Shown here: piece by piece, positions 3,686 to 64,000 of the stretch
Layout: each line of letters begins with the position of its first letter
How positions within the stretch are numbered: the stretch's first letter is position 1
Assembly (NCBI GenBank): GCA_034111325.1
Contig: JAWUXM010000002.1
Location: 80,774 to 144,773 of the forward strand
Origin: Rickettsiales bacterium
Lineage (GTDB): Bacteria > Pseudomonadota > Alphaproteobacteria > Rickettsiales > JABIRX01
Reading direction: 5' to 3'
Length of the DNA stretch: 64,000 nucleotides
Position numbers and translations under genes: made by a program
The notes under the pieces: model-generated
Databases searched by the model: none
What the model saw: only the letters and a program-made list of their open reading frames with translations
Told to the model about the DNA's origin: nothing

Positions 3686-4261
3686 CTAAGAGCCATGCTT
3701 TTTGCTTGTTTCCACAAAAGCTTCGACAGCCGCTTTTAACATCTTTTGCTGCTTTGCATCTTTCAAATCACCACTCTCATCAAAAATATTACTAGCAAAT
3801 GAGAGCGCTACTTGATTAGGTATCACCAAAACACCGATATTCCCTAGCATCATACGTAATGGCACGAGACCACGCAAACCACCAAAGCCTCCCGGAGAGG
3901 CAGCGCTGATTGCGGCGACCTTACCATTAAACGCTATAAGTGGGGCTTCGTTTGCTTCTGATGGACGAGAGATCCAATCTAAAGAATTTTTAAGTAGAGC
4001 AGAAAAAGAGCTGTTATATTCAGGGGAAGCAATGAAAAATCCATCTGCCCGACGAAACACTTCTTTTAACTTTTGGACATTTTCTGGCAAGCCAGATTCC
4101 ACTTCTAAATCACCATTGTAAATTGGCATTTCATAATTTGCCAAATCAATGACTTCTGCATTTGCACCAAGCTCAGCAGCTATCTTACAGGCTAGCTGCG
4201 CTAGTTTTGTGTTGAGAGAATCTTTACGAATTGAACCAGAGAGGAAGATTAGTTTTGTCAT
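3686..4261 (-). CDS. NADPH-dependent FMN reductase family oxidoreductase
   Basis: MTKLIFLSGSIRKDSLNTKL and SPEYNSSFSALLKNSLDW motifs. The start overlaps the pirin stop (TAATG). Confidence 0.8.
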   Translation of the reverse strand: MTKLIFLSGSIRKDSLNTKLAQLACKIAAELGANAEVIDLANYEMPIYNGDLEVESGLPENVQKLKEVFRRADGFFIASPEYNSSFSALLKNSLDWISRPSEANEAPLIAFNGKVAAISAASPGGFGGLRGLVPLRMMLGNIGVLVIPNQVALSFASNIFDESGDLKDAKQQKMLKAAVEAFVETSKKHGS

Positions 4262-4956
4262 TATTTTGCTATTTCAATTATTAAAATTTCAGCTGCATTT
4301 ATTGCGCTGATTTTTATATTTTGTAAATCTGTAATTTCAGCACCATCACCTTTTAGCATTTTTTGCCCTTCAATTTCCACCTCTCCATCTGATACTAAAA
4401 TATAGGCGTTTTCCCTGATAGAATGATTAATGACCAACCCTTGATTTAAGCGGCCACCATAGATTTTAGCATCTTGATGAATGAATAATGCATTTTTATC
4501 ATTTTTATCGCCTGAAACTAAAAGACGAAGCTTATCACTTACTAGCTCTTTAGGAAACTGTGCCTCTGCCCAGCGAGGCTGAACGCTCAGCTCTTTCGGT
4601 TCTATCCAGATCTGGTAAAGATTCGCATCAATATTTTCATTGTTATGTTCTGAATGACGAATACCTGATCCGGCACTCATAACTTGTACATCTCCAGATT
4701 CGGTACGCCCCAAATTTCCCTTGCTGTCCTTATGTGTAATGACTCCTTGGCGCACATAAGTGATGATTTCCATATCCTTATGTGGATGCGTAGCAAAACC
4801 ACCGCCAGCCTTGACGATATCATCATTGATGACTCGTAATTTGCCAAAACCCATGCGCTCAGGATTATGATAATTGGAAAAGCTAAAATGGTAATGTGCT
4901 TCTAGCCAATCATTTTTAAAAGTGCCAAGCTCGGCGTATTTTTGAATTTTGATCAT
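4261..4956 (-). CDS. Pirin family protein (cupin)
   Basis: HPHKDMEIITYV..G...H.DS.GN and GDVQVMSAGSGIRHSE pirin signatures. Confidence 0.85.
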   Translation of the reverse strand: MIKIQKYAELGTFKNDWLEAHYHFSFSNYHNPERMGFGKLRVINDDIVKAGGGFATHPHKDMEIITYVRQGVITHKDSKGNLGRTESGDVQVMSAGSGIRHSEHNNENIDANLYQIWIEPKELSVQPRWAEAQFPKELVSDKLRLLVSGDKNDKNALFIHQDAKIYGGRLNQGLVINHSIRENAYILVSDGEVEIEGQKMLKGDGAEITDLQNIKISAINAAEILIIEIAK

Positions 4957-6389
4957 TTGCTAAAAACTACTCCAATTAAAAAATGTGCAAGTAATGAGAT
5001 AATGATTACTGAAATAATGTTTAAAATCAACCCTGCGCGCATCATTTGCAGTACAGTTATGCGGTTACTTGCAAAAATAATAGCATTGGGCGGGGTGGCA
5101 ATTGGCATCATAAAAGCACAGCTTGCCGCTAAGGAGACAGGAATGGCCAAATATAATATATTGCTATCACTGCTTAGACTAATTGCTGCAACGACAGGCA
5201 AGAAAAGTGCAGTCAGTGCCATATTGCTCATTAGCTCGGTTAAGAATAAAGTTAGGGCAGTAACTAATATAATCATCAGTAACGGGCTAAAATTCCAATT
5301 GGAAATTGTCTGACCCAAATTGCTTATAAGCATTGTATTGCTTAGCATTGAAGCAATAGTTAGCCCTCCTCCGAAAAGTAGTATAAGACCCCAAGGGATG
5401 TTTTTGGCGCTTTGCCAATCTAAAGCAAATTTCTTTTTACTAAGGTCGATAGGTAGCATAAATAAAGCAATTGATGCAGCGATCGCAATGGAAGTATCGG
5501 ATAATTCACCAAGTGGCAGATTATAGGCATTAATCATAACATTAAATGGCGCTCGTAAAATCCACAATGATGCTGTAACCAAAAATACCGCAGTGACGAT
5601 TTTCTCAGCTTTTGAGAAATTACCTAATTTTTTAACTTCTTGGTGGATTATATCCGCCTGTAACGTTTTGATTTTATTTGGGAATAATATTTTTGTGAGC
5701 AATAGCCAGCAGAAAAACAGCATGCTTAATGCAAAGGGCAGCCCAACTATAAGCCATTTCGCAAAGCTGATACTGTAATTGTATTTCTCATACATAAACG
5801 CCACAAGAATTGCATTAGTCGGCGTGCCAATTAAAGTCGCTGTGCCGCCTATATTTGCTGCATAGGCAATAGAAAGCATCAAGGCTGTAGAAAAGGAAGT
5901 TTTATCATGACTAGGCAAGTTTTTAAGCACAGCCAAAGCAATAGGCAACATGATAACTGCAGTGGCAGTATTGCTAATCCACATGCTTAGAAAGGCAGTT
6001 GATACCATAAAGCCAGCAATGATGTGATTTGTATCCGTACCGATAAATTTGATTATATTAAAAGCGATCCGCTTATGCAAATTAGACTTCTGCATGGCAC
6101 TTGCGAGGAAGAAACCACCCATAAATAAAAATACTATAGGGTGAGCATAATGACTAGTAATGCTTTTAATGCTTTCTATGTTTGTCAGGGGAATTAAGGC
6201 AATTGGCAAAAGCGCCGTCATAGCCATAGGAACAATATCTGTAATCCACCAGCTAACCATCCAAGCAACTATGCCGATGATTATGACTTCCTGCTTAGGA
6301 AGGCCGAAGAAGGGCAGAATAAGTAGTGAGGCAATTAATAAAAAAGGGCCAATTAGTAAATATAGTAAATTTTTATACTTATCTAACAT
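4953..6389 (-). CDS. SLC13/DASS family anion:sodium symporter (permease)
   Basis: Polytopic protein with the duplicated hairpin motifs SNTATAVIMLPI and TPPNAI. It has a 4-nt overlap with pirin, consistent with an operon. Confidence 0.8.
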   Translation of the reverse strand: MLDKYKNLLYLLIGPFLLIASLLILPFFGLPKQEVIIIGIVAWMVSWWITDIVPMAMTALLPIALIPLTNIESIKSITSHYAHPIVFLFMGGFFLASAMQKSNLHKRIAFNIIKFIGTDTNHIIAGFMVSTAFLSMWISNTATAVIMLPIALAVLKNLPSHDKTSFSTALMLSIAYAANIGGTATLIGTPTNAILVAFMYEKYNYSISFAKWLIVGLPFALSMLFFCWLLLTKILFPNKIKTLQADIIHQEVKKLGNFSKAEKIVTAVFLVTASLWILRAPFNVMINAYNLPLGELSDTSIAIAASIALFMLPIDLSKKKFALDWQSAKNIPWGLILLFGGGLTIASMLSNTMLISNLGQTISNWNFSPLLMIILVTALTLFLTELMSNMALTALFLPVVAAISLSSDSNILYLAIPVSLAASCAFMMPIATPPNAIIFASNRITVLQMMRAGLILNIISVIIISLLAHFLIGVVFSK

Positions 6390-6407
6390 AGGCCTTTCTA
6401 GAAATTG

Positions 6408-7652
6408 TTATCTGTTGCCGCTCTGTTTATTACCAAAAGACTTGCGTGCGCCGCCGAATGGTTTCTTGCCGAAATTATTATTGCGGCTTTTACCTTTAAA
6501 TTCACGACCAAAAGGCTTTTTACCACCTTTATGTTGACCGCCGCCTCGATGATTATCATTCTTTGCTTCGCCACCGTTTAACAAAGTTTTAATTGCCTGA
6601 TATTTTTTACGATCTTCACCAGAAATAAAGCTTAAAGCTTCACCTTTTGCACCAGCACGAGCAGTTCTACCAATACGGTGGATATAATCTTCAGGGCAAC
6701 CTGGTAGATCATAATTTATCACATGTTCAATATGTGGGATATCCAAACCACGTGCAGCAACATCCGTTGCGACCATGATGCGGTGATGTTCGTCACGGAA
6801 GGATTTAATGGCACGAGCACGTTGATGTTGACGTAAATCACCATGTATTGCAACAGCACGATATTTAGCAGCATTTAATTTCTTAGATAATGCTTCAGTG
6901 TTGCGCTTAGTTTTTACAAAAATAATTACTGAACCTTGGCGCTTTTCTAACTCTTCTATTAGGCGATCATATTTTGCAGTCTGTGCAATCTCGACAAATT
7001 CTTGTTTGATATTTTCAGCTGGTGAATGAGTGCTTCCGACTGAAACACGCTCTGGCGTTACAAGATATTTGGCTGCAATTTTTTCAATTGCTTTAGGGAC
7101 AGTCGCTGAGAACATTACAGTTTGCTTAACAACTGGCAAATGCTTAACAATATCGTCAATCTGTATGCCAAAACCCATATCTAACATACGGTCCATTTCA
7201 TCAAGTACGAGGAAGTCAGAATTTTTGAGGTTTAAAGAGCGACGTTGTAAATGGTCATTGATTCTACCTGGAGTTCCAACAATTATGCGTGGGTGTTTTT
7301 TTAATTGAAAGAATTGCTTAGCAATCGGCTCACCACCGATAAGTAATGCAGCGCGAATTTGGCTGTTCTTACCAAGTAATTGTTCGATCAACGCCATAAC
7401 CTGCATAGCAAGTTCACGAGTTGGCGCAAGCACCAAGCCTGTGCTTGTATCAGAGCGAAGTAGTTTTGCAATAAGGGGGATAGCGAAGGCTGCAGTTTTA
7501 CCTGTTCCAGTTTGGGCAGATCCTAAAACGTCCTTTCCTTCTAATGCGAAAGGGATTGCCTGTGCTTGAATCGGCGTAGGTGTGTCATATTTCATTGCCA
7601 CTAGTGCATTTACAAGTGGCGTAGGCAAGTTTAATTCAGAGAAGTTTTCCAT
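6408..7652 (-). CDS. DEAD-box ATP-dependent RNA helicase (RhlE-like) with Gly/Lys/Arg-rich C-terminal tail
   Basis: Q-motif region PTPIQ, motif I AQTGTGKTAAF, motif III SAT and motif VI HRIGRTARAG are all present. Motif II reads DEMD rather than DEAD. Confidence 0.9.
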   Translation of the reverse strand: MENFSELNLPTPLVNALVAMKYDTPTPIQAQAIPFALEGKDVLGSAQTGTGKTAAFAIPLIAKLLRSDTSTGLVLAPTRELAMQVMALIEQLLGKNSQIRAALLIGGEPIAKQFFQLKKHPRIIVGTPGRINDHLQRRSLNLKNSDFLVLDEMDRMLDMGFGIQIDDIVKHLPVVKQTVMFSATVPKAIEKIAAKYLVTPERVSVGSTHSPAENIKQEFVEIAQTAKYDRLIEELEKRQGSVIIFVKTKRNTEALSKKLNAAKYRAVAIHGDLRQHQRARAIKSFRDEHHRIMVATDVAARGLDIPHIEHVINYDLPGCPEDYIHRIGRTARAGAKGEALSFISGEDRKKYQAIKTLLNGGEAKNDNHRGGGQHKGGKKPFGREFKGKSRNNNFGKKPFGGARKSFGNKQSGNR

Positions 7653-11374: not shown

Positions 11375-11412
11375 TAAAAAAAGCCATTTGGAGTTAACCA
11401 AATGGCTTTTTT
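11375..11412 (-). terminator. Rho-independent (bidirectional-type) terminator downstream of cspA
   Basis: AAAAAAAA-AGCCATTTGG-AGTTAA-CCAAATGGCT-TTTTTT: a perfect 10-bp stem flanked by A and T runs, about 20 nt past the cspA stop. Confidence 0.85.
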
Positions 11413-11432
11413 ATACTTATAGAATTGTGTTA

Positions 11433-11633
11433 TTACGCAATTTTTAAGTCAGTAGCAAATTCTTTGCCATTGTTGTTTCCTAGTTCAAAGGACACTTGTT
11501 GGCCTTCAGCTAGATCATCCAAACCTGCTTCTTGTAGAGCAGTGATGTGAACGAACACATCTTTTGAACCTTCGTCTGGTTGAATAAAACCGTAACCTTT
11601 AGTGGCGTTAAACCATTTAACAGTACCTTGCAT
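11433..11633 (-). CDS. cspA: Cold-shock protein, CspA family
   Basis: [15 protein letters not shown] (RNP1) and VFVHITAL (RNP2-like); 66 aa. Confidence 0.9.
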
Positions 11634-11822
11634 AATAATAATCCTCGTAGAAATAATGAAATAATAAAAATAGATAAGGAAAAGCTGAGAATAAAAAGGG
11701 GAAGAAAAGAAGCGCCTTGCGAGAAGAAATCTTATAAACTTGCCCTAGCCTAAAAGCAGCTAAAACATATCTGCATCGAAAAATAGCTTCTTTATAATAA
11801 GAAGCAAGCAATTATTTTTGTT

Positions 11823-19353: not shown

Positions 19354-20844
19354 ATGAAAGGAAAAACAACTGAAATTATGAACGAAATTTTAAGCGCCGC
19401 AGAAATCTATCTTGCCGATAAATTAACTACTGAGAAATTTAGTATTTCAGGCGAACAACTTATGGAGAATGCTGGCACGGAGATTAGCAAAATCATCACG
19501 CAAAAATATCAACCTTGCGCTATTTTGGTTTTGTGTGGTTTAGGTAATAATGGTGGCGATGGCTTTGTTGTAGCACGCTTGCTACAAACGCAGGGCTTTA
19601 CAGTGCAGCTTTGTGTTTTTGGCGATGACAGCAAAATAAAAAATGATGCGTTACTTGCCAAAGCAAAATGGTTGGCTGATGGCGGCGAGATCAAAGCTTT
19701 TTCAAATGATTTACTAAAAGAGGCGGCGTTAATTATTGATGCGATTCTAGGCGTTGGTTTAAGTAAAAATATTGAGGGAGAGATTGCGCAAGCAATTGAT
19801 TATGTTAACAAATCAAAGCTGCCAATTATCGCGGTGGATATTCCAAGCGGCGTCAATGCAGATGATGGCAAAATCATGGGAGTTGCGATTCAGGCAAGCG
19901 AAACGATAAGCTTTTTCCGTCCGAAATTAGGTCATTATCTCTTACCGGGGAAGGAATATATTGGTAGATTACATATTGTTGATATTGGCATTCCAAATGA
20001 TGTATTGCTTGAGATCAAAGTACAGAATTTCTTGAATGAGCCGAGCCTTTGGCAAAATGATTTCCCACATCTAAAAGCGGCTAGCAATAAATATGATCGT
20101 GGGCATGCGATAATAATTGGTGGTGAAATGCAATCCGCCGGCGCTGCAAAAATCGCCGCTTATTCTGCACTACGTAGCGGCAGCGGCTTAGTCAGTGTGG
20201 CGTGTTCATCAGAAACATTGCTAATTTATGCAGAATCCTTAATGGCAGTGATGACCAAACTTGTTGATTCAGAGGAAGCCCTCACCAAGCTAATTGATGA
20301 TAAAAGAACCAGCGCTTTTCTCATCGGCCCGGGGAGCGGCTTGACGCAAGCAACAAAAGAAAAAACTCAACAAATTTTGCTAAGCAGAAAAGCTTGCGTA
20401 ATTGATGCAGATGCGATTTCAGTTTTTGCAGATAACCCAAAAGAGATTTTCGCCCTAACTCACGAAAATGTAATTTTCACACCACATAGCGGTGAATTTA
20501 AAAGGATTTTTGATGATAGCGGCAGCAAAATAGAGAATGCTAAAAAAGCTGCACAACAAAGCGGCGCAGTGGTAATTTTGAAAGGTAATGATACAATTAT
20601 TGCTAGCCCTGATGGACGGTTAGCGATAAATCACAATGCGCCAAATTGGCTAGCAACGGCAGGCTCTGGCGACGCATTAGCAGGAATCGCCACTGGTTTA
20701 CTCGCGCAACATATGCCAACTTTTGAAGCAGCCTGCGCTGCTGTTTGGCTTCATTCAGAAGCGGCAAACTTCTCCTCAATTGGTATGATCGCGGAAGATT
20801 TAATCGATAATATTCCAAAGGCTTTAAGTCTTATTCATATTTAG
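19354..20844 (+). CDS. nnr: Bifunctional NAD(P)H-hydrate repair enzyme (epimerase/ADP-dependent dehydratase)
   Basis: YjeF-N motif GLGNNGGDG and C-terminal carbohydrate-kinase motif GSGDALAG. Confidence 0.85.
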   Translation: MKGKTTEIMNEILSAAEIYLADKLTTEKFSISGEQLMENAGTEISKIITQKYQPCAILVLCGLGNNGGDGFVVARLLQTQGFTVQLCVFGDDSKIKNDALLAKAKWLADGGEIKAFSNDLLKEAALIIDAILGVGLSKNIEGEIAQAIDYVNKSKLPIIAVDIPSGVNADDGKIMGVAIQASETISFFRPKLGHYLLPGKEYIGRLHIVDIGIPNDVLLEIKVQNFLNEPSLWQNDFPHLKAASNKYDRGHAIIIGGEMQSAGAAKIAAYSALRSGSGLVSVACSSETLLIYAESLMAVMTKLVDSEEALTKLIDDKRTSAFLIGPGSGLTQATKEKTQQILLSRKACVIDADAISVFADNPKEIFALTHENVIFTPHSGEFKRIFDDSGSKIENAKKAAQQSGAVVILKGNDTIIASPDGRLAINHNAPNWLATAGSGDALAGIATGLLAQHMPTFEAACAAVWLHSEAANFSSIGMIAEDLIDNIPKALSLIHI

Positions 20845-27210: not shown

Positions 27211-27218
27211 TTATAAAA

Positions 27219-27234
27219 TGTTTCACGTGAAACA
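27219..27234. promoter_or_regulatory. parS: parS site, perfect TGTTTCACGTGAAACA
   Basis: Exact consensus palindrome, 9 nt after the HAD hydrolase stop. The flanking sequence is related to the parS modules at 28402 and 28706. Confidence 0.8.
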
Positions 27235-27433
27235 TTGACGAGATCATGCGGAAACCGCAGACCCTTCATTTTTTAGAGCTTGTTTTTAACCTACAATGTC
27301 TAGCAAGCCACAAAACTGGCTCGCCCTCCCTCAATTGACTTTTACTACTTCTCCATTTTGCCTTTGCAAAAAACATTTAATAGTGCGTTAATGGATATAA
27401 AAGTAATATAACCAACCGAAAAACTGTAATATC

Positions 27434-28393
27434 ATGAGTAAAATCGAGATTTATACTAATAAAAACAATGAGGCTTCAATTGAAGTCCAGTTTGAAAACG
27501 AAACTGTTTGGCTTACACAAAGTCAGATAAGTGACCTTTTTGGAAGAGACAGAACTGTAATTTCAAGGCATTTAAATAATGTATTTAAAGAAGGTGAGCT
27601 TGAGAAAAAAAGCAATATGCAAAAAATGCATATTGCAAATTCTGACAAGCCCGTCGAGCTTTATAACCTTGATGTGATTATCTCAGTTGGCTATCGAGTC
27701 AAATCAAAACAAGGCACGCAATTTAGAATTTGGGCGACTAATCGCTTAAAAGAATATTTAGTTCAAGGCTATTCCATCAACGAAGAGAGGCTCAACCAAT
27801 TACAAAAAACCATTAAACTTATTGGTAAAAATATTGATGTAGAGAATGTTGATTTGGGGGAAGCAAAGGGTATGCTTAATATAATCAAAAACTACAATGA
27901 GAGCTTTGTTTTGCTTAATCAATTTGATAGCAATAGCTTAGAAACAAAGCATCTTAATAGAAACATCACTTACGCAATAAAGCATGATGAAGCTTTGCTA
28001 GCAATAACCGAACTCAAAAACCAACTCATTAAGAAAAAAGAAGCAACCGAGTTGTTTGGTAATCGAAAAGACGATTCTTTTCAGGGCACTTTGGGTAATA
28101 TTTTACAAAGTTTCGGCGGAGAATATCTATATCCCTCAATTGAAGAACAGGCGGCAAATTTGCTTTATTTAACCATTAAAAACCACTCGTTTTCTGACGG
28201 CAATAAACGCATCGGCGCCTTTATGTTTATTTGGTTTTTAGAGAAAAACAAACACTCCTTTAAAAAAACAGGCGAGCTCAAGATAAATGATAATGCCTTG
28301 GTGGCTCTTGCTTTATTGGTTGCGAGCAGCAACCCAAGTGACAAAGATTTAATGGTAAAATTAATAATTAATTTAATCAAAGACCAAAAATAG
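27434..28393 (+). CDS. RhuM-N-terminal domain fused to Doc-type Fic domain (RhuM/Fic/DOC family protein)
   Basis: The N-terminal half, VWLTQSQISDLFGRDRTVISRHLNNVF...YNLDVIISVGYRVKSKQGTQFRIWATNRLKEYLVQGY, matches the RhuM family. The C-terminal half has the Fic/Doc core HSFSDGNKRIGAF (HxFxDGNKR, Doc-like NKR). Confidence 0.8.
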   Translation: MSKIEIYTNKNNEASIEVQFENETVWLTQSQISDLFGRDRTVISRHLNNVFKEGELEKKSNMQKMHIANSDKPVELYNLDVIISVGYRVKSKQGTQFRIWATNRLKEYLVQGYSINEERLNQLQKTIKLIGKNIDVENVDLGEAKGMLNIIKNYNESFVLLNQFDSNSLETKHLNRNITYAIKHDEALLAITELKNQLIKKKEATELFGNRKDDSFQGTLGNILQSFGGEYLYPSIEEQAANLLYLTIKNHSFSDGNKRIGAFMFIWFLEKNKHSFKKTGELKINDNALVALALLVASSNPSDKDLMVKLIINLIKDQK

Positions 28394-28401
28394 AGATGGG
28401 A

Positions 28402-28479
28402 AACCATAATGTTTCACGTGAAACATTCACAGGATCCCGCAGATAACTAAGCTTTATGGTTTTTTTGAGCGTCAAATTT
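28402..28479. repeat. parS-carrying ~78-bp direct repeat, copy A
   Basis: AACCATAATGTTTCACGTGAAACATTCACAGGATCCCGCAGATAACTAAGCTTTATGGTTTTTTTGAGCGTCAAATTT is near-identical to 28706-28782. Confidence 0.85.
28410..28425. promoter_or_regulatory. parS: parS site, perfect TGTTTCACGTGAAACA
   Basis: Exact consensus, 17 nt after the Fic/Doc gene stop. Confidence 0.8.
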
Positions 28480-28518
28480 AATAAATAGTTCTTATGGCAT
28501 CTCACACTAAAATATCGT

Positions 28519-28630
28519 CATAGCCTGAATTGCGTAGCAATTCTAAGGCTATCCAGGAGCTACAAACAATTATTGCGCCCTTTACTCCTAGACTCCCTTA
28601 GAATTCCTGCGGAATTCAGGGAGTGACGCG
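28519..28630. repeat. Two-hairpin MITE/RPE-like element, family A (inverted copy)
   Basis: Its reverse complement, CGCGTCACTCCCTGAATTCCGCAGGAATTCTAAGGGAG...ATAATTGTTTGTAGCTCCTGGATAGCCTTAGAATTGCTACGCAATTCAGGCTATG, aligns with 25675-25788. Confidence 0.75.
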
Positions 28631-28705
28631 GCAAGCAAGGGAGTAATAAATATTTTTATCCGGTAGTGTGATGGCATATATAAAACAGCCTTAACATCAT
28701 AATTG

Positions 28706-28782
28706 AACCATAATGTTTCACGTGAAACATTGACAGGATCCCGCAGATAACTAAGCTTTGTGTTTTTTTGAGCGTCAATTTT
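28706..28782. repeat. parS-carrying ~78-bp direct repeat, copy B
   Basis: AACCATAATGTTTCACGTGAAACATTGACAGGATCCCGCAGATAACTAAGCTTTGTGTTTTTTTGAGCGTCAATTT. Confidence 0.85.
28714..28729. promoter_or_regulatory. parS: parS site, perfect TGTTTCACGTGAAACA
   Basis: Exact consensus within direct-repeat copy B. Confidence 0.8.
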
Positions 28783-28804
28783 TCTATTTATCACTCCGCA
28801 GCGA

Positions 28805-29077
28805 CTATGTTTTTTCGCTGATAATCACTGAAAAACCATTTTCCTCACAACTTTTCAACAGCTCTGTAGATAGATAATCAAGTTTACGAATAGTTTCCTG
28901 ATATTTTCTGAGCCAATCTTCCGTAACAAACAATTGGAATTTCTGGAGCTTATTAGCAAAATCTTCACAGCTTTTCATAGCATAGCGCATATTATTCTGC
29001 ACTTGTGCATAGCTACTCACAATATTTTGCATCTCAATATAAACGTTGGTGGGGTTGGTAGATTTGGATTTTGTCAT
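28805..29077 (-). CDS. Hypothetical 90-aa protein (island orphan)
   Basis: Clean ORF starting MTKSKS. It looks helical and has no motif I recognise. It shares an upstream hairpin architecture with the KAP NTPase gene. Confidence 0.45.
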   Translation of the reverse strand: MTKSKSTNPTNVYIEMQNIVSSYAQVQNNMRYAMKSCEDFANKLQKFQLFVTEDWLRKYQETIRKLDYLSTELLKSCEENGFSVIISEKT

Positions 29078-29484
29078 GATGGTTACCTATAAAAGTTACT
29101 AAGCTTTAAAACGCACACATATAAGGAGCAGGTGCTAGGGCGTTAGTAAGCCGCCAAAGACAGCCGACTGCACCTTACGATACAGCCCGCCCTAGCATAA
29201 AAGCATAATCTTTGAAGGTTACTAAGCCTTAGTGGCTAGAATGGTAATCTACCACTTGAAAGTCAATGAAAAGCTTCTCTTTCTATGAATTTGCGCACTT
29301 TGCATCTTAAGGAAGCGCTGAGATGAGCTGGCTGATATTTTGTCTTCTTGGGAATTTATTTGGTTGCGAGGGTTAAAGCCTTTGTTTATAAGGATTTGAC
29401 ATAGTAGTTGCGGCACATCAAAATCTTTTTTAGAGAAAAATTAGAATAGCACCAATTATTACTAAACCCGCAATGGTCATAATA

Positions 29485-30924
29485 TTAATCAAAGAAATTT
29501 AGACACATATCAACCTTTTTTGATATACTGTCCATAAAACTACCACTGCCATTATAACTGCCATGATGAGAACCAAGAATGCTTTGAGCCCCTCTAAGAA
29601 GATAGCTTTGCTGAGCTTGATAAGCCTGGTCTTGGGCACTAATTAGAATAAAAGGGTGAAGATATTCTATAAGAAAGTCTGTATTTGCTTGATAATTTTC
29701 TTTGGTTTTAATTATATAAAGCGTCATTTCAGCCCACCAAGAACTGCCAACTAAATTATCTTTTTTAATTAATCCATGTTTTTCAAAGAGCTGAATATAG
29801 TCTTGGTATAAAAAGCTACCTTCTCTAATTCTTTTTGCATTTTCTTCATTATCTAACAAAATCGCAATATAAAGAATCGCTGCAAGTAAAATTCCATGCA
29901 CCTTCTTTGTGCCTTGCTGTGCTGTTAGAGTATGAGATAATATTCTAAAAAACTCATCTACTTGTCTTGGAGACAAGTTAAAACAATTACAAATCTCGCA
30001 TATTTGCTCTTGTACGTACTCAATTATATTGTTTGTATAGAATCTATCTGCCCGCCCTTGTCCAAAATACTCTTCAACTTTTGACTTAATATATGACAGA
30101 ACAGCGTTCTCATCTGGCTTTGGAAGGCTAACATTCCTGTGAATGAATTTTCTGTAATATTCTGAAAAATCTAGGTCTCCATATAAGCATCTAATTGATG
30201 ATTCTAGATGCCCTTTGTCTACCCCTAAAATAAATACTACCCCTTTAGTTTGAAAGAAGTGTTTAAGGGTTTCTAGAAAATGAACTGCGTAATTTGGTCT
30301 AGACCTATCCAACTCATCAACTAGGATGAACAAAGGCTTATTTTCTAATGAAGAAATATAACTTTTTAATGACTTATTTAGCTGTTCAAACAAATTGCTC
30401 TTTTCAACATATTCTTTGAAAATTGCATTACCCATTTTTTCATCTCTATCTTTCATGTCTTTTTCAACTATTTCAGCGCATTCCTTTACATTAATCCCTG
30501 TAAATTTATTGATAACTTGATTGGTTGCAATTGCACAACTGCCAATCACCATAAAAAGAGTCTCTTTCAGGCAACTTGTTATTTCTTCATCCAACCCTTT
30601 TTTCTTGTTTAAATGGTCTATTATCTCAGAAGCGATTGTAACTACTGGTTCGTCAAAAAAGTCATTTTTCCAAGCATTGATATGAATAACATCATATTCT
30701 TGACCAACTTCTAAACGGTTCTTCATCATTTCTAAAAAACATGATTTGCCAGAACCAAACTGTCCATTTAGACTCATTACCAAGCTACCTTCAACATGAG
30801 GATATTCAGCAACTACATGTTTTATTAATTTCTCAGCAAAACTTTTTAGGTCCAATTTGTCAAAATGATCAAATGTTTTATCTAAGTTGTTTTTTGCTAA
30901 TTCTGGACCAGTCTCTTTTGTCAT
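29485..30924 (-). CDS. KAP family P-loop NTPase
   Basis: Walker A LNGQFGSGKSCFLEMM is followed by INAWKNDFFDEP. After a long insert comes Walker B FILVDELDRSRPNYAVHFLETLKHFF, then VFILGVDKGHLESSIRCLYG. This is the canonical KAP motif order. Confidence 0.85.
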   Translation of the reverse strand: MTKETGPELAKNNLDKTFDHFDKLDLKSFAEKLIKHVVAEYPHVEGSLVMSLNGQFGSGKSCFLEMMKNRLEVGQEYDVIHINAWKNDFFDEPVVTIASEIIDHLNKKKGLDEEITSCLKETLFMVIGSCAIATNQVINKFTGINVKECAEIVEKDMKDRDEKMGNAIFKEYVEKSNLFEQLNKSLKSYISSLENKPLFILVDELDRSRPNYAVHFLETLKHFFQTKGVVFILGVDKGHLESSIRCLYGDLDFSEYYRKFIHRNVSLPKPDENAVLSYIKSKVEEYFGQGRADRFYTNNIIEYVQEQICEICNCFNLSPRQVDEFFRILSHTLTAQQGTKKVHGILLAAILYIAILLDNEENAKRIREGSFLYQDYIQLFEKHGLIKKDNLVGSSWWAEMTLYIIKTKENYQANTDFLIEYLHPFILISAQDQAYQAQQSYLLRGAQSILGSHHGSYNGSGSFMDSISKKVDMCLNFFD

Positions 30925-31242
30925 TATTTATCTAAATAAAAATTCATTTCACGTAAAAAAGGTGTCAGGGTGTTTGTAGATCGTACATAGTCGACCCTGA
31001 AAGCGTTACCACAATCAGCACCCTGACATAATAGGCCACTATCGCTTCCTAAGAAACGCTATGTACGTGCTACAAAACACAAACGAAGTATTAATCTCTG
31101 GTTAGGCAGGTGTCAATATAGGATGCGTAAGCTTTGCGATAATTAAAAAAATATAATCGCACGAACGATATTTTGCGGCAACAGTGCGGCAATGAGTTTT
31201 TATGTGGGGCTGAGGCAAAAGCCAAGAAGCCTTGGTTTTATG

Positions 31243-31319
31243 TGGTTGCGGGGGCAGGATTTGAACCTACGGCCTTCAGGTTATGAGCCTGACGAGCTAC
31301 CAGACTGCTCCACCCCGCG
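31243..31319 (-). tRNA. Initiator tRNA-fMet (anticodon CAT), CCA encoded
   Basis: The reverse complement reads CGCGGGGTGGAGCAGTCTGGTAGCTCGTCAGGCTCATAACCTGAAGGCCGTAGGTTCAAATCCTGCCCCCGCAACCA. It is 77 nt and near-identical to E. coli tRNA-fMet. It has the C1:A72 mismatch hallmark. The anticodon stem is UCAGG/CCUGA, giving two rather than three G:C pairs next to the loop. Confidence 0.95.
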
Positions 31320-31803
31320 CTAATGACTTAGATTGTTTATGCGTTTTGCACATTGGAATCTAAGGAGAGCGCATTTTGTGGGTTTTCGGCTAAGAGTCAA
31401 GGTTTTATACTAGGCAGCCTGCTCTTATGTGCTGGATATTGTAAATTAATTCGTGACACTCGCACAGTATGGACCCCTGCCTGCGCAGGGATGACGGCTT
31501 GGACGTTATTTTGCGCAAACGTCAGCCTAATAACGACATTCATCTTTAAATGCACATTTCTTGTAGGCATAAAAGCTAGGGGTTTTTGTCACAATCCTAC
31601 GGATAGAAGTAAAATTAGCGATATAGCTTCGTGCAATTTCTCGCCAATAGCTTTGGCTATTAGCTTTACGATTCTACGTGGCTACTCAGCATCTAATTTT
31701 ACATAACTGCAAATGCGTATTTAAAGATGAATGTCGGTATAAGATAAGATATTGCATTAGCAGGAAACCCCTACTATAACTGAAAAAATCACTGAATTTA
31801 TAC

Positions 31804-39793: not shown

Positions 39794-40357
39794 ATGTCAA
39801 TTAAGTTAAGGTTTGCAAGGGGAGGAAGCAAAAAAAATCCATTTTATAGATTAGTTGCAACAGACACACGTTCACCACGTGATGGAAAATTCCTAGAAAA
39901 AGTAGGTACGTACGATCCGATGCTAGATTCTAAGGATGAAAATCGTTTCACCTTCAAGCTAGACAGAGTAGAATATTGGCTTTCTAAAGGCGCAACACCG
40001 TCTGAAAAAGTAGCTGTATTATTATTTAACAAAGATGTTCCCATCCCTACGAAATACTTACCTTTTTCTTATCCTAAAAGCAAAAAAGAGTTGGAAGAAT
40101 TAAGAACAACAAGAGATCAAAAGAAAGCTGACGAACTCCAAGCAAAGCTTGATGCAGCTAAAAAACTAGAGGATGAAGCAGCAGCAGCTACAAAAGCTGC
40201 AGACGATGAAGCAGCGGCGGCTACAAAAGCTGCTGAAGCTGAAGCAAAAGCCGCTAGCGATGCAGAAGCTGCAAACGCTCCTGAGCCTGTAGTGGAAGAA
40301 ACTCCTAGCGAAACTCCAGCAGAAGCAGAAAAACCTGCAGAAAAAACAGGCGAATAA
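39794..40357 (+). CDS. rpsP: 30S ribosomal protein S16 with long Ala/Glu/Lys-rich C-terminal extension
   Basis: MSIKLRFARGGSKKNPFYRLVATDTRSPRDGKFLEKVGTYDP is the S16 core. The remaining ~100 aa are low-complexity and include a 33-bp tandem repeat. Confidence 0.9.
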   Translation: MSIKLRFARGGSKKNPFYRLVATDTRSPRDGKFLEKVGTYDPMLDSKDENRFTFKLDRVEYWLSKGATPSEKVAVLLFNKDVPIPTKYLPFSYPKSKKELEELRTTRDQKKADELQAKLDAAKKLEDEAAAATKAADDEAAAATKAAEAEAKAASDAEAANAPEPVVEETPSETPAEAEKPAEKTGE

Positions 40358-59399: not shown

Positions 59400-62300
59400 C
59401 TAGCTTAGTTTGGATAAATCAAGCACAAGTATCTTTGTTTTTTCTTCATCTAAATCTTTATTTAATAGATCCAGCATTTCTGAAGGGGTAGTGGGAGTTA
59501 GCAAATTTTTAGGTTTTTTGATAGCTCTATTTTGACTAGTGTTAGTTCCAAACCAAAGAACGCAGTATATGCCTCTTCCTCCAACCCTGCCATCCTTTTG
59601 ATAATTTGCTAATTGCTGATAGTGGGCAGTCCACACATCTTTATGCCACTGACCCTTGATTTCTATTGGAAGCTTTAACAGGGAATGTGAGCAAAGTATG
59701 TCGCAGCGCTTATCATCTACCACATCCCCCTCTCTACCGCAAGACACGTTGAAGCTATTTAAATAATGAGATAACTCATCTATTATTAAGTCTCTACAGT
59801 GGTTCTCTACACGAGGCTCATCCTCCAATTTCCAAAATTTTGTTATACGAGTGTTATTGCCACTCCTTAAGTAGTTCTGCAATCTAACTAATTGATCAAA
59901 TACAACTGCCTGCAAATCTTCATGGTCAGAAGGTTCGCTTTGCATTAATATTTTCCTAACCCCATGAAGAGTTACGATTTTTATCTCCTCATTAGCCTTT
60001 TTTGTTTTCTGGTTGTAATGCAGATTCTTTATAAGATTTTGATATTGTTCCAATCCAGAGTAATTTACTAAATCACCTAGTTTTTTTATACCTTCGTCAG
60101 AATAATTATTTGATAAGTTTTGTATTTGCTGACGAATAAAGTCGGAAGCTTGCCGCGCATTCTTATTGCCAGAGCCGGAAGAAGGCATATCAACTGGAGG
60201 CCACAAAGAACCAAATAGTGTTATCAAAAAATAACTCTGCTCAATGCTTAAAATATTTATATTTGATTCACAGTACGAAACAAGATATTTTAGGTACCAT
60301 ATAGTTTCTTTTTTATCCTCAATATAAGTTTTTAAGGTTTTTTGACTAAATTCATAATCAACTATAAATGCAGCTCCCATCCATAGCCCTTTAATCTCTT
60401 CCCTCTCCCACTTATCTGCCTTGATTTTTCCTCTTATAATTTTTTTTAACCTCTCAGGGGCATGCTTTATGGCAATTGATAAAATCTCCTTCAGAGGATT
60501 AAATGAAACGCTGCTAAATTTGTTTAGCCAAGCAATTGATAAATCTTCTAAAATATCGTAAAATATTTCATCTCGTGCAATTTCGCATAATCCCCTAACA
60601 TGATCCACCTTTGCGCCCAGTTGTGATTCAATCAAGATGCGTAAAAATTCTTTTTTGGTCTTGTTGTTACCAAAAACTATATCTCGCAAATAGAGTTCTA
60701 GGTTTCTTATCTCAAAATTTTCTCTGAATAATTCCCATCGGCACGAGGCTAAAATAGAAAATAAGATTTCTTTTGGTTGATGATGTAGCTCATTTCTTTC
60801 TAGCAAAATAATGCCATACGCCAATAAAATCGATTCATGGAGATAAGATTTATTTAATGCATGCGCCTCGCAAATTTTATATACCGAAGGAATGTCCTCA
60901 CATTTCTTTATAAAAGAATTTAATCCCTCTAATGCAATTAACACGTTTTGTTTACCGGCAAGCTCTTCAACCCTCTCCAGAGAAGAATTGCCGCTTATTT
61001 TTGAAAAACATTCTCCTAAATATGCACAGGATATTCGGTGAATTTGTCCAAAATTAGTTCCGGATTTTATCTCAATTTGCGCTGAGTCATAACACTTATG
61101 GCGCTTTAGCTTTTCTTCTTCTTTTTCTCTTTTTGATTTTTCTTCACGTTCCTGAGATTTTCTTGCCCAGTCATTTTCAGCAGGCTTTTCTAAGGAAGTT
61201 AAATATTCCTTTAGCAAGTTATTTTGTTCAGCGTGAATTCTTACAAGCTTTAAGACTTCGCCAGAAGATGAGGATCTGACAAGACCTATGTAGCAATTAC
61301 TCCAGTTTTTATCTTTTATCTCTTCTTTAAATAAATCATCTAAATGTTTTATTATATCTTCTTCGCTAAAGGATAATCCTATACTTAGATTCTTAATTTC
61401 ATGTACAGTCATAAGTGTATTATTAGAATCACGCAAAGCTAATTTCTGAATAATATATTTTAGACCTTTATTTTCTTGAAAGTAGTTTAAACTAAATTCA
61501 TCCCATGCAGAGTGATCATGGGGACTCATATTCTCCAAACCCTTAATCCAGCTCCATAATTTTTCTGCATCAAGATTGGGAACAAGTTCTAAATATCTTT
61601 TTGTAAACTTAAAAACCCACTCCCCGATAGAACTATTATGGTTTTCATATGTGTTTTCAGAAATTGTGTGTAGTGCAGTTTCTAGTTGTTCAGAAGATAG
61701 GTTTTTCTCTATTCCATGTCCTATTCCAAACACAGGGATTTCATCATCTTTCCCGTTCAGAAAGTCTATTTTAATTAGGATATTTGCTATGTCGTTTCCA
61801 CTAAATGTAAAAGATTTATCCTGTATTATATCAATCGCTAAGCATAAAGAGTTAAAGTCACCACCGTATTCTTGAAGTTTAGATATTATTTTTTGCCAAT
61901 TGTCATATTTTTCCGATGCCAATAAAGCGCCAATTGCGGCATCTCGCTCAATGAAACTTTTTGTTTTATCAAGAATGAATTTTTCTAGTTTTTGGTAAAT
62001 AGAATCAGGAAAGAGATCAACCTGTATTGCCTCTAAAACCAGACATATTATTTGTCTGGAAGGCCCTTGAATGATCTTAACAATTTCATTATAAACCTCT
62101 GGTTCTGAGATATTTCTTTGGGTTTTTATACCTCTATTAGATATATGAAACCACGGATCTTTGTCATTTAGATACTCTAAGCACAATAAAAGATGCCTAA
62201 GTTGACTTGCATTTAATTCTGACGCATCAGCATATATTAGTATTCCGTATGGGTCTCTCTCAATTAAACCGTTAACTAAGTCCTTATTTTCTAAGGCCAA

Positions 62301-63350
62301 GAAAGTGGTTAAATGCGCATACAACCCTCTTAAAGAAGAAGGGACAATTCTATGGCTTCCATAAAATATGGTATTTAATCTTCTAGGGGAAATTGGTTTT
62401 TCAAGAAAATAAGAGATCCATTTTCCCGCTAGATATTCAGCAATTGTTCTGTGAAAAGGCTCTATTGTTATACTAGAGACAATATTAAATAATTTTGTTG
62501 ATACAGCATATTTTAAAGTCTTCAGTTGATATTCTTCGTTAGCTAAATCTTTTAATGAAGGAAGGGATGTGTTTTGCGTTCCTATATGTATTCCGCCAAT
62601 GCCAGACAAAATTAATTGAGAAAATATAAAGCCGCAGGTTTCTATTAACTTTTGATTAGAAGGGCGGTCATCACTTCCCATATCAAGGTGAATGAGATTA
62701 CTTTCTTCTACAAGAATCTCACAAAAATCATTATATAATTTATGTTTTGAATCAGGCCACCCTCCTTCCTTAACCACCTCTATGAACATTTTAAGAATTA
62801 AAGGATTGTATATCATGTCTTCTTCTACTCCACACTTTACGGACTTAGATAAGAATGTTTGGGGGGTAATATTTGTATACTTTGTTGTGATAAACTCTAT
62901 AACATCGGCATCACTAAATCTTTGAAGTATCCCTATGGTTAGTTCGCAACCCCATCTTTTTTTTATTCTATCTTCATATGTAGATTTCCAATCAACCGAT
63001 CTACAAGTAATGATAAAATTTGGCTTTTCTAAATGAGATATTTTTGACCAAACCTGATTAGATTCATATTGAGAATAAGCTGTAACCTCATCCAATCCAT
63101 CAATTATTATTTTTACGTCATTATTGCCACTTTCAACCGAAGAATAAATAGAGAGATCTGAAGCGTTGTATATGCTAGACCCACTCCTTTTTCTATACTC
63201 CTCAACCAAACAACTTTTACCCAATCCAGGTTCTCCTAAAATAATTAGCGGCCCATCCAAGTTAAGAAAATCTTCATCAGAGTATTCTTTGCTATCGTTG
63301 TTGCTATCGTTGTTTTGATTTACAAATATTTTACGCGAGATGTAATTCAT
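59400..63350 (-). CDS. Large (1316-aa) NACHT/STAND-like P-loop NTPase with helical-repeat body and C-terminal PD-(D/E)xK-like nuclease-fold module (candidate defence protein)
   Basis: Walker A is GEPGLGKS (aa 39-46) and Walker B is IIIDGLDEV. About 1000 aa follow that look helical by composition. The C-terminus reads HCRDLIIDEL...GDVVDDKRCDILCSHSLLKLPIEIKGQWHKDVW...GIYCVLWFG, giving an E...D...(E-x-K) arrangement. The gene is visibly more AT-rich than neighbouring housekeeping genes. Confidence 0.7.
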   Translation of the reverse strand: MNYISRKIFVNQNNDSNNDSKEYSDEDFLNLDGPLIILGEPGLGKSCLVEEYRKRSGSSIYNASDLSIYSSVESGNNDVKIIIDGLDEVTAYSQYESNQVWSKISHLEKPNFIITCRSVDWKSTYEDRIKKRWGCELTIGILQRFSDADVIEFITTKYTNITPQTFLSKSVKCGVEEDMIYNPLILKMFIEVVKEGGWPDSKHKLYNDFCEILVEESNLIHLDMGSDDRPSNQKLIETCGFIFSQLILSGIGGIHIGTQNTSLPSLKDLANEEYQLKTLKYAVSTKLFNIVSSITIEPFHRTIAEYLAGKWISYFLEKPISPRRLNTIFYGSHRIVPSSLRGLYAHLTTFLALENKDLVNGLIERDPYGILIYADASELNASQLRHLLLCLEYLNDKDPWFHISNRGIKTQRNISEPEVYNEIVKIIQGPSRQIICLVLEAIQVDLFPDSIYQKLEKFILDKTKSFIERDAAIGALLASEKYDNWQKIISKLQEYGGDFNSLCLAIDIIQDKSFTFSGNDIANILIKIDFLNGKDDEIPVFGIGHGIEKNLSSEQLETALHTISENTYENHNSSIGEWVFKFTKRYLELVPNLDAEKLWSWIKGLENMSPHDHSAWDEFSLNYFQENKGLKYIIQKLALRDSNNTLMTVHEIKNLSIGLSFSEEDIIKHLDDLFKEEIKDKNWSNCYIGLVRSSSSGEVLKLVRIHAEQNNLLKEYLTSLEKPAENDWARKSQEREEKSKREKEEEKLKRHKCYDSAQIEIKSGTNFGQIHRISCAYLGECFSKISGNSSLERVEELAGKQNVLIALEGLNSFIKKCEDIPSVYKICEAHALNKSYLHESILLAYGIILLERNELHHQPKEILFSILASCRWELFRENFEIRNLELYLRDIVFGNNKTKKEFLRILIESQLGAKVDHVRGLCEIARDEIFYDILEDLSIAWLNKFSSVSFNPLKEILSIAIKHAPERLKKIIRGKIKADKWEREEIKGLWMGAAFIVDYEFSQKTLKTYIEDKKETIWYLKYLVSYCESNINILSIEQSYFLITLFGSLWPPVDMPSSGSGNKNARQASDFIRQQIQNLSNNYSDEGIKKLGDLVNYSGLEQYQNLIKNLHYNQKTKKANEEIKIVTLHGVRKILMQSEPSDHEDLQAVVFDQLVRLQNYLRSGNNTRITKFWKLEDEPRVENHCRDLIIDELSHYLNSFNVSCGREGDVVDDKRCDILCSHSLLKLPIEIKGQWHKDVWTAHYQQLANYQKDGRVGGRGIYCVLWFGTNTSQNRAIKKPKNLLTPTTPSEMLDLLNKDLDEEKTKILVLDLSKLS

Positions 63351-63499
63351 GTCCTCATTTTGATTTTTTATTTAAGATAAACGGCGCAATGCTATGTGAT
63401 TATTAATAATTTTCAAAATATTGCCTAAGCCCTTTTCTTCCCACTCCCCACTAAACTCAGGAAGCCTCAATTTTAAAATGTTATTTTTTGCTTTAATAT

Positions 63500-64000
63500 T
63501 CATTTAATGTTTTTAATTTTCTCTTCTAATTGATCTAACTCTTTCAAATCTTCGTCATCAGCTAGCTTGGCATCAAATGCTTTTCTTTTTAAGTCAAAAT
63601 CTTCATAGATTTCTTTAACTTCTTTTTCCATTTGGGCATTACTAATTTTGCCAGAATTTTGAAGAAGATTCATGTCGTTAGATTGTAAAATGCGATCAAC
63701 ATTTTCTTGCCAAAATTTCATAATAATATCCTTGCGGCTTTTTGCTCTAAGCTCTGCTGTTTCTAAGAAAATTGTTACTAAACGATTTAAAATATCTAAC
63801 TCTTCTGCTGATAAATAATTTTTGGCAATAATAATATCTTGCTTTCTAACAACGCCACCTTGCCAAGAAGTTAGTGCCATATTGGGTTTATTAGCATCTG
63901 CTCTATTAAGAATTATTTCTGCGGCAGTTTTATTGGTAACAGCATATAAAAGTTTATTTTGCGTCCCGGCAAAGAACATTTGAGTTGCTTTATCACTTTT
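63500..64000 (-). CDS. RhuM family protein, partial (N-terminus beyond right window edge)
   Basis: FFAGTQNKLLYAVTNKTAAEIILNRADANKPNMALTSWQGGVVRKQDIIIAKNYLSAEELDILNRLVTIFLETAELRAKSRK matches the conserved C-terminal half of RhuM-family proteins. The frame stays open upstream of the track's Met to position 64000. Confidence 0.8.
   Translation of the reverse strand, partial: KSDKATQMFFAGTQNKLLYAVTNKTAAEIILNRADANKPNMALTSWQGGVVRKQDIIIAKNYLSAEELDILNRLVTIFLETAELRAKSRKDIIMKFWQENVDRILQSNDMNLLQNSGKISNAQMEKEVKEIYEDFDLKRKAFDAKLADDEDLKELDQLEEKIKNIK

Follow-up and report, generated by a model that had tools for sequence, protein, structure and literature searches.

How did a gene for a KAP-family nucleoside triphosphatase (NTPase) come to lie next to an initiator tRNA gene? 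The question is raised by a 64,000-nucleotide stretch of DNA, hereafter the window, from a Rickettsiales bacterium (NCBI GenBank assembly GCA_034111325.1, contig JAWUXM010000002.1, positions 80,774 to 144,773, forward strand). A first-pass annotation had proposed that the 3' end of tRNA-fMet recurs behind the KAP gene as the scar of an attachment (att) site. Here, we report an analysis of the gap between a HAD hydrolase gene and tRNA-fMet (27211-31242). We read it, with a probability of roughly 60%, as tandem integrase-less mini-elements integrated at a tRNA-fMet core, with the KAP islet (31242 to 29373, 1.87 kb) as the proximal member.

The target gene, tRNA-Met(CAT), was the sole tRNA gene in the window (ARAGORN, Rfam). 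It carries a C1xA72 mismatch, the hallmark of bacterial initiator tRNA, which marks the gene as initiator type. The tRNA-side 18-mer TTTATGTGGTTGCGGGGG (31237-31254) comprises 12 nt of the tRNA 3' end, including CCA, and 6 nt of flank; on the 3' side of the tRNA and in the same orientation, 16 of its 18 positions recur in the distal 18-mer TTTATTTGGTTGCGAGGG (29355-29372). The coordinates, identity and orientation given by the first-pass annotation were reproduced, and the KAP gene (29485-30924), its upstream hairpin (30952-31034) and a micro-open reading frame (micro-ORF; 29480 to 29430) do lie between the two copies. Matches with at most three mismatches are expected 0.04 times per window on both strands. 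A geometry-aware test took 51 nt around the tRNA end as its query, searched the 5 kb downstream of it on the same strand with the register left free, and scored the best ungapped match. The repeat had p = 0.004 when the background was Markov sequence, 0.05 when it consisted of other 5-kb pieces of the window and 0.034 when random queries were run on the 5 kb next to each, so the annotation's chance estimate of well below 1e-3 was overstated for the window. The tRNA flank matched equally well at 19525-19540 (15/16) and 40238-40252 (14/15), alignment of the flanks beyond the 18-mer gave no significant extension (p = 0.33), and no third copy of the tRNA end was found further out in the window. 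Judged by the window only, the repeat is suggestive rather than compelling. A separate exact 10-nt repeat, TTTTATGTGG (tRNA CCA plus CATAAAA), lies at 31199-31208 and 31236-31245, on either side of the terminator-like hairpin that follows the tRNA; it may mark another small recombination scar or be coincidental.

Window statistics are insufficient by themselves to call an att scar; a sibling contig of the same metagenome was required. A 113-kb contig of Joint Genome Institute (JGI) metagenome 3300041951 contains the window, and the same sample holds L034, a contig of 7,257 bp that shares six blocks with the HAD-tRNA gap (Table 1). Between the two blocks nearest the repeat (3895-3922 and 3946-3975), L034 reads TTCAAATCCTGCCCCCTGCCACCA, a 24-nt fragment of tRNA-fMet running from T-loop to CCA. 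The corresponding part of the tRNA, TTCAAATCCTGCCCCCGCAACCA, is identical to L034 3928-3951 at 16/16 positions and then at 6/7. Identity from the T-loop to the 3' end is the signature of attachment sites used by T-loop-class integrases, in the classification of Williams 2002. At the position of TTCAAATCCTGCCCCCTGCCACCA, the window retains only TCGCAACCA, 22 nt having been lost between CCCC microhomologies. In the distal 18-mer, the leading CCC is part of a neighboring conserved arm, and the strictly tRNA-derived remnant is CGCAACCA plus related flank. Because the homologous site on L034 holds the longer T-loop-to-CCA fragment, we read the distal 18-mer as real tRNA homology, the stump of a genuine tRNA-fMet 3' fragment and hence a truncated recombination core. 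The idea of a tRNA 3'-end att scar is supported by this longer fragment, found on L034 between the same arms and beside unrelated cargo.

L034 encodes a DEAD/ResIII helicase, a T5orf172 protein, a 94%-identical copy (P0244) of the 90-aa ORF of the gap (28805-29077), and a type IIG restriction-modification gene. The single type IIG gene is split into three pieces, at 4986-6506 (profile positions 27-479), 6644-7255 (551-757) and 3-482 (763-910). Because these run in profile order across the contig ends, L034 would be a circle or a tandem unit. Its order is core, P' arm, preA (the promoter/leader region), A-type RNA element, 90-aa ORF, parS, RhuM-Fic fragments, restriction-modification gene, helicase, T5orf172, P arm and core. 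A tetranucleotide comparison of L034 with the window was discarded for lack of discrimination, since all AT-rich loci correlate at 0.9 or more.

On L034 and in the window alike, the core is preceded by a P arm of ~24-28 nt (…CCTTATAAACAAAGGCTTTAACCC) and followed by a P' arm of ~23 nt (A[AT/GC]AAATTCCCAAGAAGACAAAA), and window 29397-29338 is colinear with the P-core-P' segment of L034. This arm-core-arm layout would represent an attP or the junction of two tandem elements, not an attR abutting private chromosome. On the cargo side, homology stops ~25-28 nt from the core, with KAP beyond it in the window and T5orf172, the DEAD helicase and the type IIG gene beyond it on L034. At the other end, preA and RNA element A form a 181-nt block, 96% identical to L034 3971-4150, which lies upstream of the 90-aa ORF there and of KAP here. 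On L034, promoter and A-type element directly follow the P' arm; because the same block follows P' there, left arm, promoter and RNA leader probably constitute the conserved left end of a family. Reading away from the tRNA, the window has the intact core, a diverged P' start, a terminator-like hairpin, ~77 nt, preA, element A, KAP, the micro-ORF, P, the truncated core and P'. Past the P' arm follow 134 nt, element B, the 90-aa ORF, parS, a palindrome, a second parS, RhuM-Fic (opposite strand), a third parS and HAD. The two 18-mers do bracket the KAP unit as claimed, but the distal site is not the end of foreign DNA, as accessory DNA runs on past it to the HAD gene. The plan of left arm, promoter, RNA leader, cargo and right arm is common to all three units (two in the window, and L034).

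Table 1. Positions of features in the window and of blocks shared with contig L034
Feature	Position	Strand	Evidence or remark
Initiator tRNA-Met(CAT), target gene (attB side)	31243..31319	minus	ARAGORN; Rfam tRNA 63.8 bits; C1xA72 mismatch in alignment
Proximal recombination core, T-loop to CCA (TTCAAATCCTGCCCCCGCAACCA)	31243..31265	minus	match to L034 3928-3951
First bases after tRNA (CATAAAACCAAGG), diverged P' arm start	31230..31242	minus	alignments; overlaps terminator-like hairpin 31222-31235 (terminator-like site)
Promoter/leader region preA	31035..31136	minus	promoter-like site, sigma-70-like TTGACA-18-AATACT at 31116 to 31087; L034 homology
Structured RNA element A, three-way junction	30952..31034	minus	27 nt upstream of KAP ATG; Rfam sRNA-Xcc1 34.2 bits
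KAP-family P-loop NTPase, 479 aa, cargo of tRNA-proximal element	29485..30924	minus	Pfam PF07693; PADLOC PDC-S20
Putative hydrophobic 16-codon micro-ORF (MTIAGLVIIGAILIFL)	29430..29480	minus	starts 5 nt past KAP stop; 15/16 residues hydrophobic
P arm, conserved right end of element (…CCTTATAAACAAAGGCTTTAACCC)	29370..29397	minus	96% to L034 3895-3922; unique in window
Distal 18-mer: putative truncated tRNA-fMet core (CGCAACCA left; 22 nt of T-loop/T-stem lost) plus P' arm start	29355..29372	minus	alignment
P' arm (AATAAATTCCCAAGAAGACAAAA), left end of distal element	29338..29360	minus	90% to L034 3946-3975; unique in window
Structured RNA element B, paralogue of A	29122..29203	minus	44 nt upstream of 90-aa ORF; Rfam sRNA-Xcc1 26 bits
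90-aa orphan ORF, first gene of distal element	28805..29077	minus	94%-identical L034 copy
Multi-hairpin palindrome, 113 nt	28516..28628		DNA fold z -4.7
RhuM-Fic/Doc fusion, 319 aa, distal-element cargo	27434..28393	plus	Pfam RhuM + Fic; TIGR01550 Doc
Perfect parS-type palindromes (three), inside accessory gap	27219-27234, 28410-28425, 28714-28729		parS identity from known consensus
parS-type palindrome copies, window and L034	2063-2078, 27219-27234, 28410-28425, 28714-28729, 32792-32807, 35037-35052; L034 ~4535-4550		
Block shared with L034 3895-3922	29397-29370		blastn, 96%
Block shared with L034 3946-3975	29367-29338		blastn, 90%
Block shared with L034 3971-4150	31136-30956		blastn, 96%
Block shared with L034 4165-4564	29102-28706		blastn, 93%
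Block shared with L034 4490-4702	28476-28264		blastn, 94%
Block shared with L034 4692-4791	28153-28054		blastn, 100%

Under the favored reading, the gap would hold two members, accreted in tandem, of a family of tiny mobile elements that lack an integrase, each built from a P' left arm, a promoter, an ~80-nt three-way-junction RNA leader, one or more cargo genes and a P right arm of ~25 nt. Members would recombine at a core that copies tRNA-fMet from T-loop to CCA, the T-loop sublocation classically used by tyrosine integrases, so that the tRNA is restored and a displaced 3' fragment is left behind. The KAP islet would be the later arrival, because it is tRNA-proximal and incomers usually join at the intact tRNA. 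The distal 18-mer would then be the displaced-core remnant at the junction of P (new element), core and P' (old element). A subsequent 22-nt deletion would have removed the T-loop part of this distal core, and because of that loss the islet is probably immobile now, locked in place. The recombinase would be supplied in trans by a helper island or prophage of the same tRNA-fMet specificity elsewhere in the genome. Site-specific integration, its order, the trans-acting integrase and the loss of mobility are steps that we infer.

RNA elements A and B were ~70% identical, with compensatory stem changes, and each was co-oriented with the ORF downstream. Covariance model R1 gave 94 bits for A and 90.7 bits for B (range, 86-94 on the sense strand and ~10 on the other); across the 64 kb it found two copies only, both in the 4-kb HAD-tRNA gap. 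A pattern scan of metagenomes yielded a clear homologue in two marine contigs, L020 (3326-3407, minus strand) and L022 (2218-2299, minus strand), ahead of a 172-aa orphan ORF to which the 90-aa ORF has no similarity. The marine island starts at the 3' end of tmRNA and encodes a HATPase_c protein with a DUF4325 (STAS-like) partner. A, B and the L020 copy share a three-way junction of 25 pairs, 12 of them with double changes among the three sequences, and 93% of cells were paired versus 31-47% with partners slid. Several stem pairs are G-U on the sense strand. Because both these pairs and the model score favor that strand, the data point to elements that act as RNA, and we treat the element as a putative cis leader or small RNA within the conserved left end of a mobile element.

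The nearest described family is sRNA-Xcc1 (Rfam RF02221, ~90 nt; Xanthomonas integron cassettes, APSE phages, Xylella islands), which precedes symE in the Xanthomonas cassettes and an ORF6N gene in the phages. Its gathering score of 53 was not reached by A (34.2), B (26) or the L020 copy (24.8 bits), yet the three-way junction, closing stem and CACC-U tail of the family were all found, with covariation. A and B resemble sRNA-Xcc1 in their long closing stem and two hairpins, in a 6-nt 3' junction strand and CACC(U) tail, and in their place ahead of, and in the same orientation as, a variable small gene of mobile DNA (symE or ORF6N there; the KAP, 90-aa and 172-aa ORFs here). They differ in the sub-threshold score, in the AT-rich host, in being known from sequence alone and in forming part of the left end of an att-bearing element. 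When viral contigs were scanned for patterns of the RNA element, promoter and P arm, only chance matches or none turned up. A c4-like antisense role, with loops pairing with the downstream leader, was rejected, as no cognate complementarity was found. The closing stem retains an ATG at its 5' edge in A (31028-31014), B (29197-29174) and L020 (~3401-3378). These ATGs open mini-ORFs of 4-7 codons (MSGC, MLGRAVS and MSGCWKW), two of which stop in the conserved GUAA loop; a ribosome-binding site was not seen for them.

The KAP protein matched Pfam PF07693 (E = 4.9e-37; 128.2 bits, cut-off 20) and, over residues 15-476 of 479, PADLOC PDC-S20 (PDLC04959; E = 2.1e-70), with intact Walker A (GQFGSGKS, 54-61) and Walker B (LFILVDE, 198-204) motifs. 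It scored 71.7 bits against the QatA NCBIfam equivalog, whose cut-off is 600, and matched PifA only weakly; no QatBCD partners were found, its neighbors being the tRNA, the 90-aa ORF and RhuM-Fic. An AlphaFold 2 model (predicted local distance difference test [pLDDT], 84) shows a P-loop domain and a C-terminal region that is helical. Its best structural neighbors in the Protein Data Bank were RdrA (RADAR) and ORC/Cdc6, at low template modeling scores, and a sequence search of that database with the KAP profile gave no match. As judged from model and hydropathy, the insert at 113-192 is helical and not hydrophobic (pLDDT <50 at 135-160). Residues 339-360 are the sole segment above 1.6 hydropathy (best 19-residue value, 1.75), and this helix is packed within the model. 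The gene has a GC content of 0.326 (z = -2.1), second lowest of 53 ORFs, and unremarkable codon usage. No obvious ribosome-binding site precedes the micro-ORF, and no counterpart was found after the KAP homologues in three other loci (L009, L010, L013).

The best KAP homologue was 57% identical. Elsewhere, homologues adjoin HipA, RhuM, reverse transcriptase, HEPN or housekeeping genes, and the contexts examined (L009, L010, L013, L035/L036) had no tRNA, hairpin element or integrase; the KAP gene would be a free-moving single-gene cargo. At L009 2743-5085, a 55%-identical KAP homologue lies beside a RhuM-family gene with 51% identity to the RhuM-Fic protein of the window, in the N-terminal part of the latter. 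The two genes may form a recurring pair, or their proximity may just reflect the abundance of RhuM in defense islands. Some stand-alone KAP NTPases with uncharacterized C-terminal regions were reported in 2026 to block phages in a Walker-B-dependent manner (PMC13552941), which partly updates the remark of the first-pass annotation that the function of KAP NTPases is largely uncharacterized. No published experimental test of the PDC-S20 family was found in the literature. With the single-gene anti-phage KAP proteins (EF_KAP and its metagenomic relatives, PMC13552941; PifA of the F plasmid; QatA; PDC-S20), the protein of the window shares the KAP P-loop, intact Walker motifs, an uncharacterized C-terminal region and a stand-alone gene in a mobile or defense context. 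Unlike EF_KAP, which is modeled with two transmembrane helices, it has no clear ones. Both larger genes of the gap match PADLOC candidate defense families, and the GC content of KAP is low, in favor of the tandem mini-element reading. From family and fold, we infer that the KAP protein may be an ATP-dependent single-gene anti-phage protein, expressed from the element promoter through the RNA leader.

In the distal element, a search of 1.8 billion representative proteins gave the 90-aa ORF only two remote relatives, and neither NCBIfam nor PHROG nor, above its gathering cut-off, Pfam gave a match; no relatives of the 90-aa or T5orf172 proteins were found in viral contigs. RhuM-Fic matched PADLOC PDC-S23 (E = 5.6e-129), and L034 holds fragments only of this gene. 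The palindromes of the gap presumably are parS sites, an identity that we take from the known consensus. Six copies of this palindrome, TGTTTCACGTGAAACA, five of them perfect, lie around parAB, versus 0.04 expected by chance: one is inside rsmG, one lies 9 nt past the parB stop and three are in the HAD-tRNA gap. The copy on L034 might let this small DNA molecule use the host partition system. The 113-nt palindrome, which had no Rfam match, sits between two direct, 95%-identical, parS-bearing 77-nt repeats (28402-28478 and 28706-28782). L034 has one copy of the repeat and lacks the palindrome, a ~304-nt insertion/deletion difference.

The organism is without close database relatives. Protein clusters of KAP, HAD and NlpD hold this organism only, a scan of genome collections with the HAD protein returned two clostridial loci only (20% identity), and the three contexts of HAD homologues inspected (L004-L008) had no shared synteny.

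Several observations weigh against the tandem mini-element reading. Neither the 64-kb window nor L034 was found to encode an integrase, another recombinase or a transposase; the first-pass annotation had likewise seen no integrase in its decayed or satellite-type islet. The sequence covered comprised the window, ~2 kb of additional flank and the 7.3-kb contig. No second P or P' arm or core was recognizable near HAD in searches of the window, and beside the intact tRNA the P' start is diverged and followed by ~77 extra nt. The real-sequence p values for the repeat (0.034 and 0.05) are weak. Only one sibling contig is known; its circularity is read from gene order alone, and its end joint is ~2 nt short of keeping the type IIG frame. 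The L034 core reads TGCCACCA, and a T-loop crossover with it would not restore a working acceptor stem; instead of an active attP, it may be a decayed, displaced junction within a tandem array. Searches yielded neither an empty site nor a close relative to compare with; the closest non-self HAD hydrolase among 5.8 billion proteins is 49% identical and without synteny. Finally, the defense function of this KAP protein is a prediction from family and fold.

Some of these same facts favor homologous recombination as the only process. The tRNA fragment and its flanks would have been copied once from the tRNA locus, the L034 plasmid and the chromosome would swap modules through ~100-400-nt homologies (RNA leaders, 90-aa ORF, parS repeat), and KAP would have arrived in this way, with no 1.87-kb site-specific integration. 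At 93-100% identity, the shared blocks are of sufficient length for RecA, an A-type leader precedes different genes in the window and on L034, as a crossover at the leader would produce, no integrase was found in either, and the core is damaged in both copies. What such exchange leaves unexplained is the T-loop-to-CCA limits of the tRNA identity, the position of the element exactly at the 3' end of an intact tRNA-fMet, and the sharp end of cargo-side homology ~25 nt from the core with unrelated genes beyond; we consider it unlikely, though well worth keeping in mind. A chance 16/18 match in AT-rich DNA beside a KAP gene that is simply a variable chromosomal gene would suit the empirical p of only 0.03-0.05, the equal-scoring matches of the tRNA flank elsewhere and the lack of extension into the flanks. 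The 16 further consecutive tRNA-identical bases at the homologous L034 site effectively refute it, and we give it very little credence.

Two further explanations keep mobile DNA and change its kind. Islands are typically marked by an intact tRNA together with a displaced, directly oriented fragment, and integrase loss by deletion is common (PMC5704250), so one larger integrase-bearing island or prophage could have decayed at tRNA-fMet, with the 18-mer as its outer attR, chromosome beyond and KAP as leftover cargo. But outside the 18-mer lie the P' arm, an RNA leader, the 90-aa ORF, parS and RhuM-Fic, all common to L034, and a second RNA element and a second PADLOC candidate stand beyond the supposed boundary; such a history seems quite improbable. 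The sub-threshold sRNA-Xcc1 matches on either side of KAP, together with the occurrence of sRNA-Xcc1 in Xanthomonas integron cassettes, might instead suggest a degenerate cassette array, that is, an attC cluster without integrase whose hairpins are attC sites. Yet RYYYAAC...GTTRRRY pairs are absent from 26.8-31.7 kb (8 in the whole window, both strands), A and B are three-way junctions with sense-strand G-U pairs and not single imperfect attC hairpins, there is no intI, and in Xanthomonas the sRNA is cassette cargo, not attC; this is the least credible of the alternatives.

Tandem accretion of integrase-less, att-flanked elements is documented for cis-mobilizable elements (CIMEs; PMC5704250). 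Like CIMEs of the ICESt1/ICESt3 family of Streptococcus thermophilus (PMC5704250), the KAP unit has a core at both ends (the distal one truncated), lacks integration and transfer genes, and has a tandem neighbor at the 3' end of its target gene. At the inner junction, the arm of one element is joined to that of the next, and mobility is expected only via a helper integrase. Unlike CIMEs, the elements of the window are far smaller (1.9 kb and ~2-4 kb; sibling, 7.3 kb), carry defense-type cargo on a backbone of promoter and RNA leader, and reside in an uncultured low-GC bacterium rather than a firmicute, and a circular or tandem copy is seen without a known helper. With tRNA genomic islands that have T-loop att sites (Islander; Williams 2002 classes), the locus shares T-loop-to-3'-end identity and an intact tRNA with a displaced fragment in direct orientation at the other end. 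It differs in having no integrase inside the island or beside the tRNA (KAP is the sole long ORF of the islet), in being tenfold smaller than is typical and in a displaced fragment truncated to 8-9 nt. Defense cassettes of sedentary chromosomal integrons (bioRxiv 10.1101/2024.07.02.601686) are likewise reported to be compact, often single-gene defense units in tandem at one platform. The window, by comparison, is without attC, attI and IntI, uses a mimic of a tRNA 3' end as its site and gives each unit its own promoter.

Elsewhere in the window, 33-nt inverted repeats (31527-31559 and 31711-31743; 88% complementary, 151 nt apart) in the tRNA-nlpD spacer resemble a miniature inverted-repeat element. 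A second low-GC accessory spot (59400-63979) holds a 1316-aa ORF (GC content, 0.338) without Pfam or PADLOC match. The RhuM-family gene beside it, cut by the window end, matched PDC-S05 (E = 3.5e-57) and has the lowest GC content in the window (0.312). At 11378-11777 (minus strand), a sub-threshold match to the 5' untranslated region of the cspA thermoregulator (55.6 bits; gathering score, 78) overlaps a cold-shock-domain gene and its upstream region.

Integrase-less, att-bearing elements accreted at a tRNA were known; new here would be the mini size, the defense-type genes and the conserved structured RNA leader. A bolder and speculative extension, which we rate as rather unlikely, is a cassette-like capture system that parallels integrons with a tRNA mimic. 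In it, small circularizable units (tRNA-fMet-like core, own promoter, sRNA-Xcc1-type leader and one or a few defense genes) would be stacked and swapped at the initiator tRNA by a dedicated trans-acting recombinase, with the RNA leader serving the element life cycle through expression gating or unit recognition. The locus offers a testable setting for stand-alone KAP NTPases of the PDC-S20 type and for an sRNA-Xcc1-like RNA that recurs ahead of toxin or defense genes in mobile DNA. If the tandem mini-element reading is true, defense genes would travel as stripped units of ~2-7 kb (attachment site, promoter and RNA leader) that borrow a recombinase, and such turnover of defense genes would be overlooked by island finders that require an integrase.

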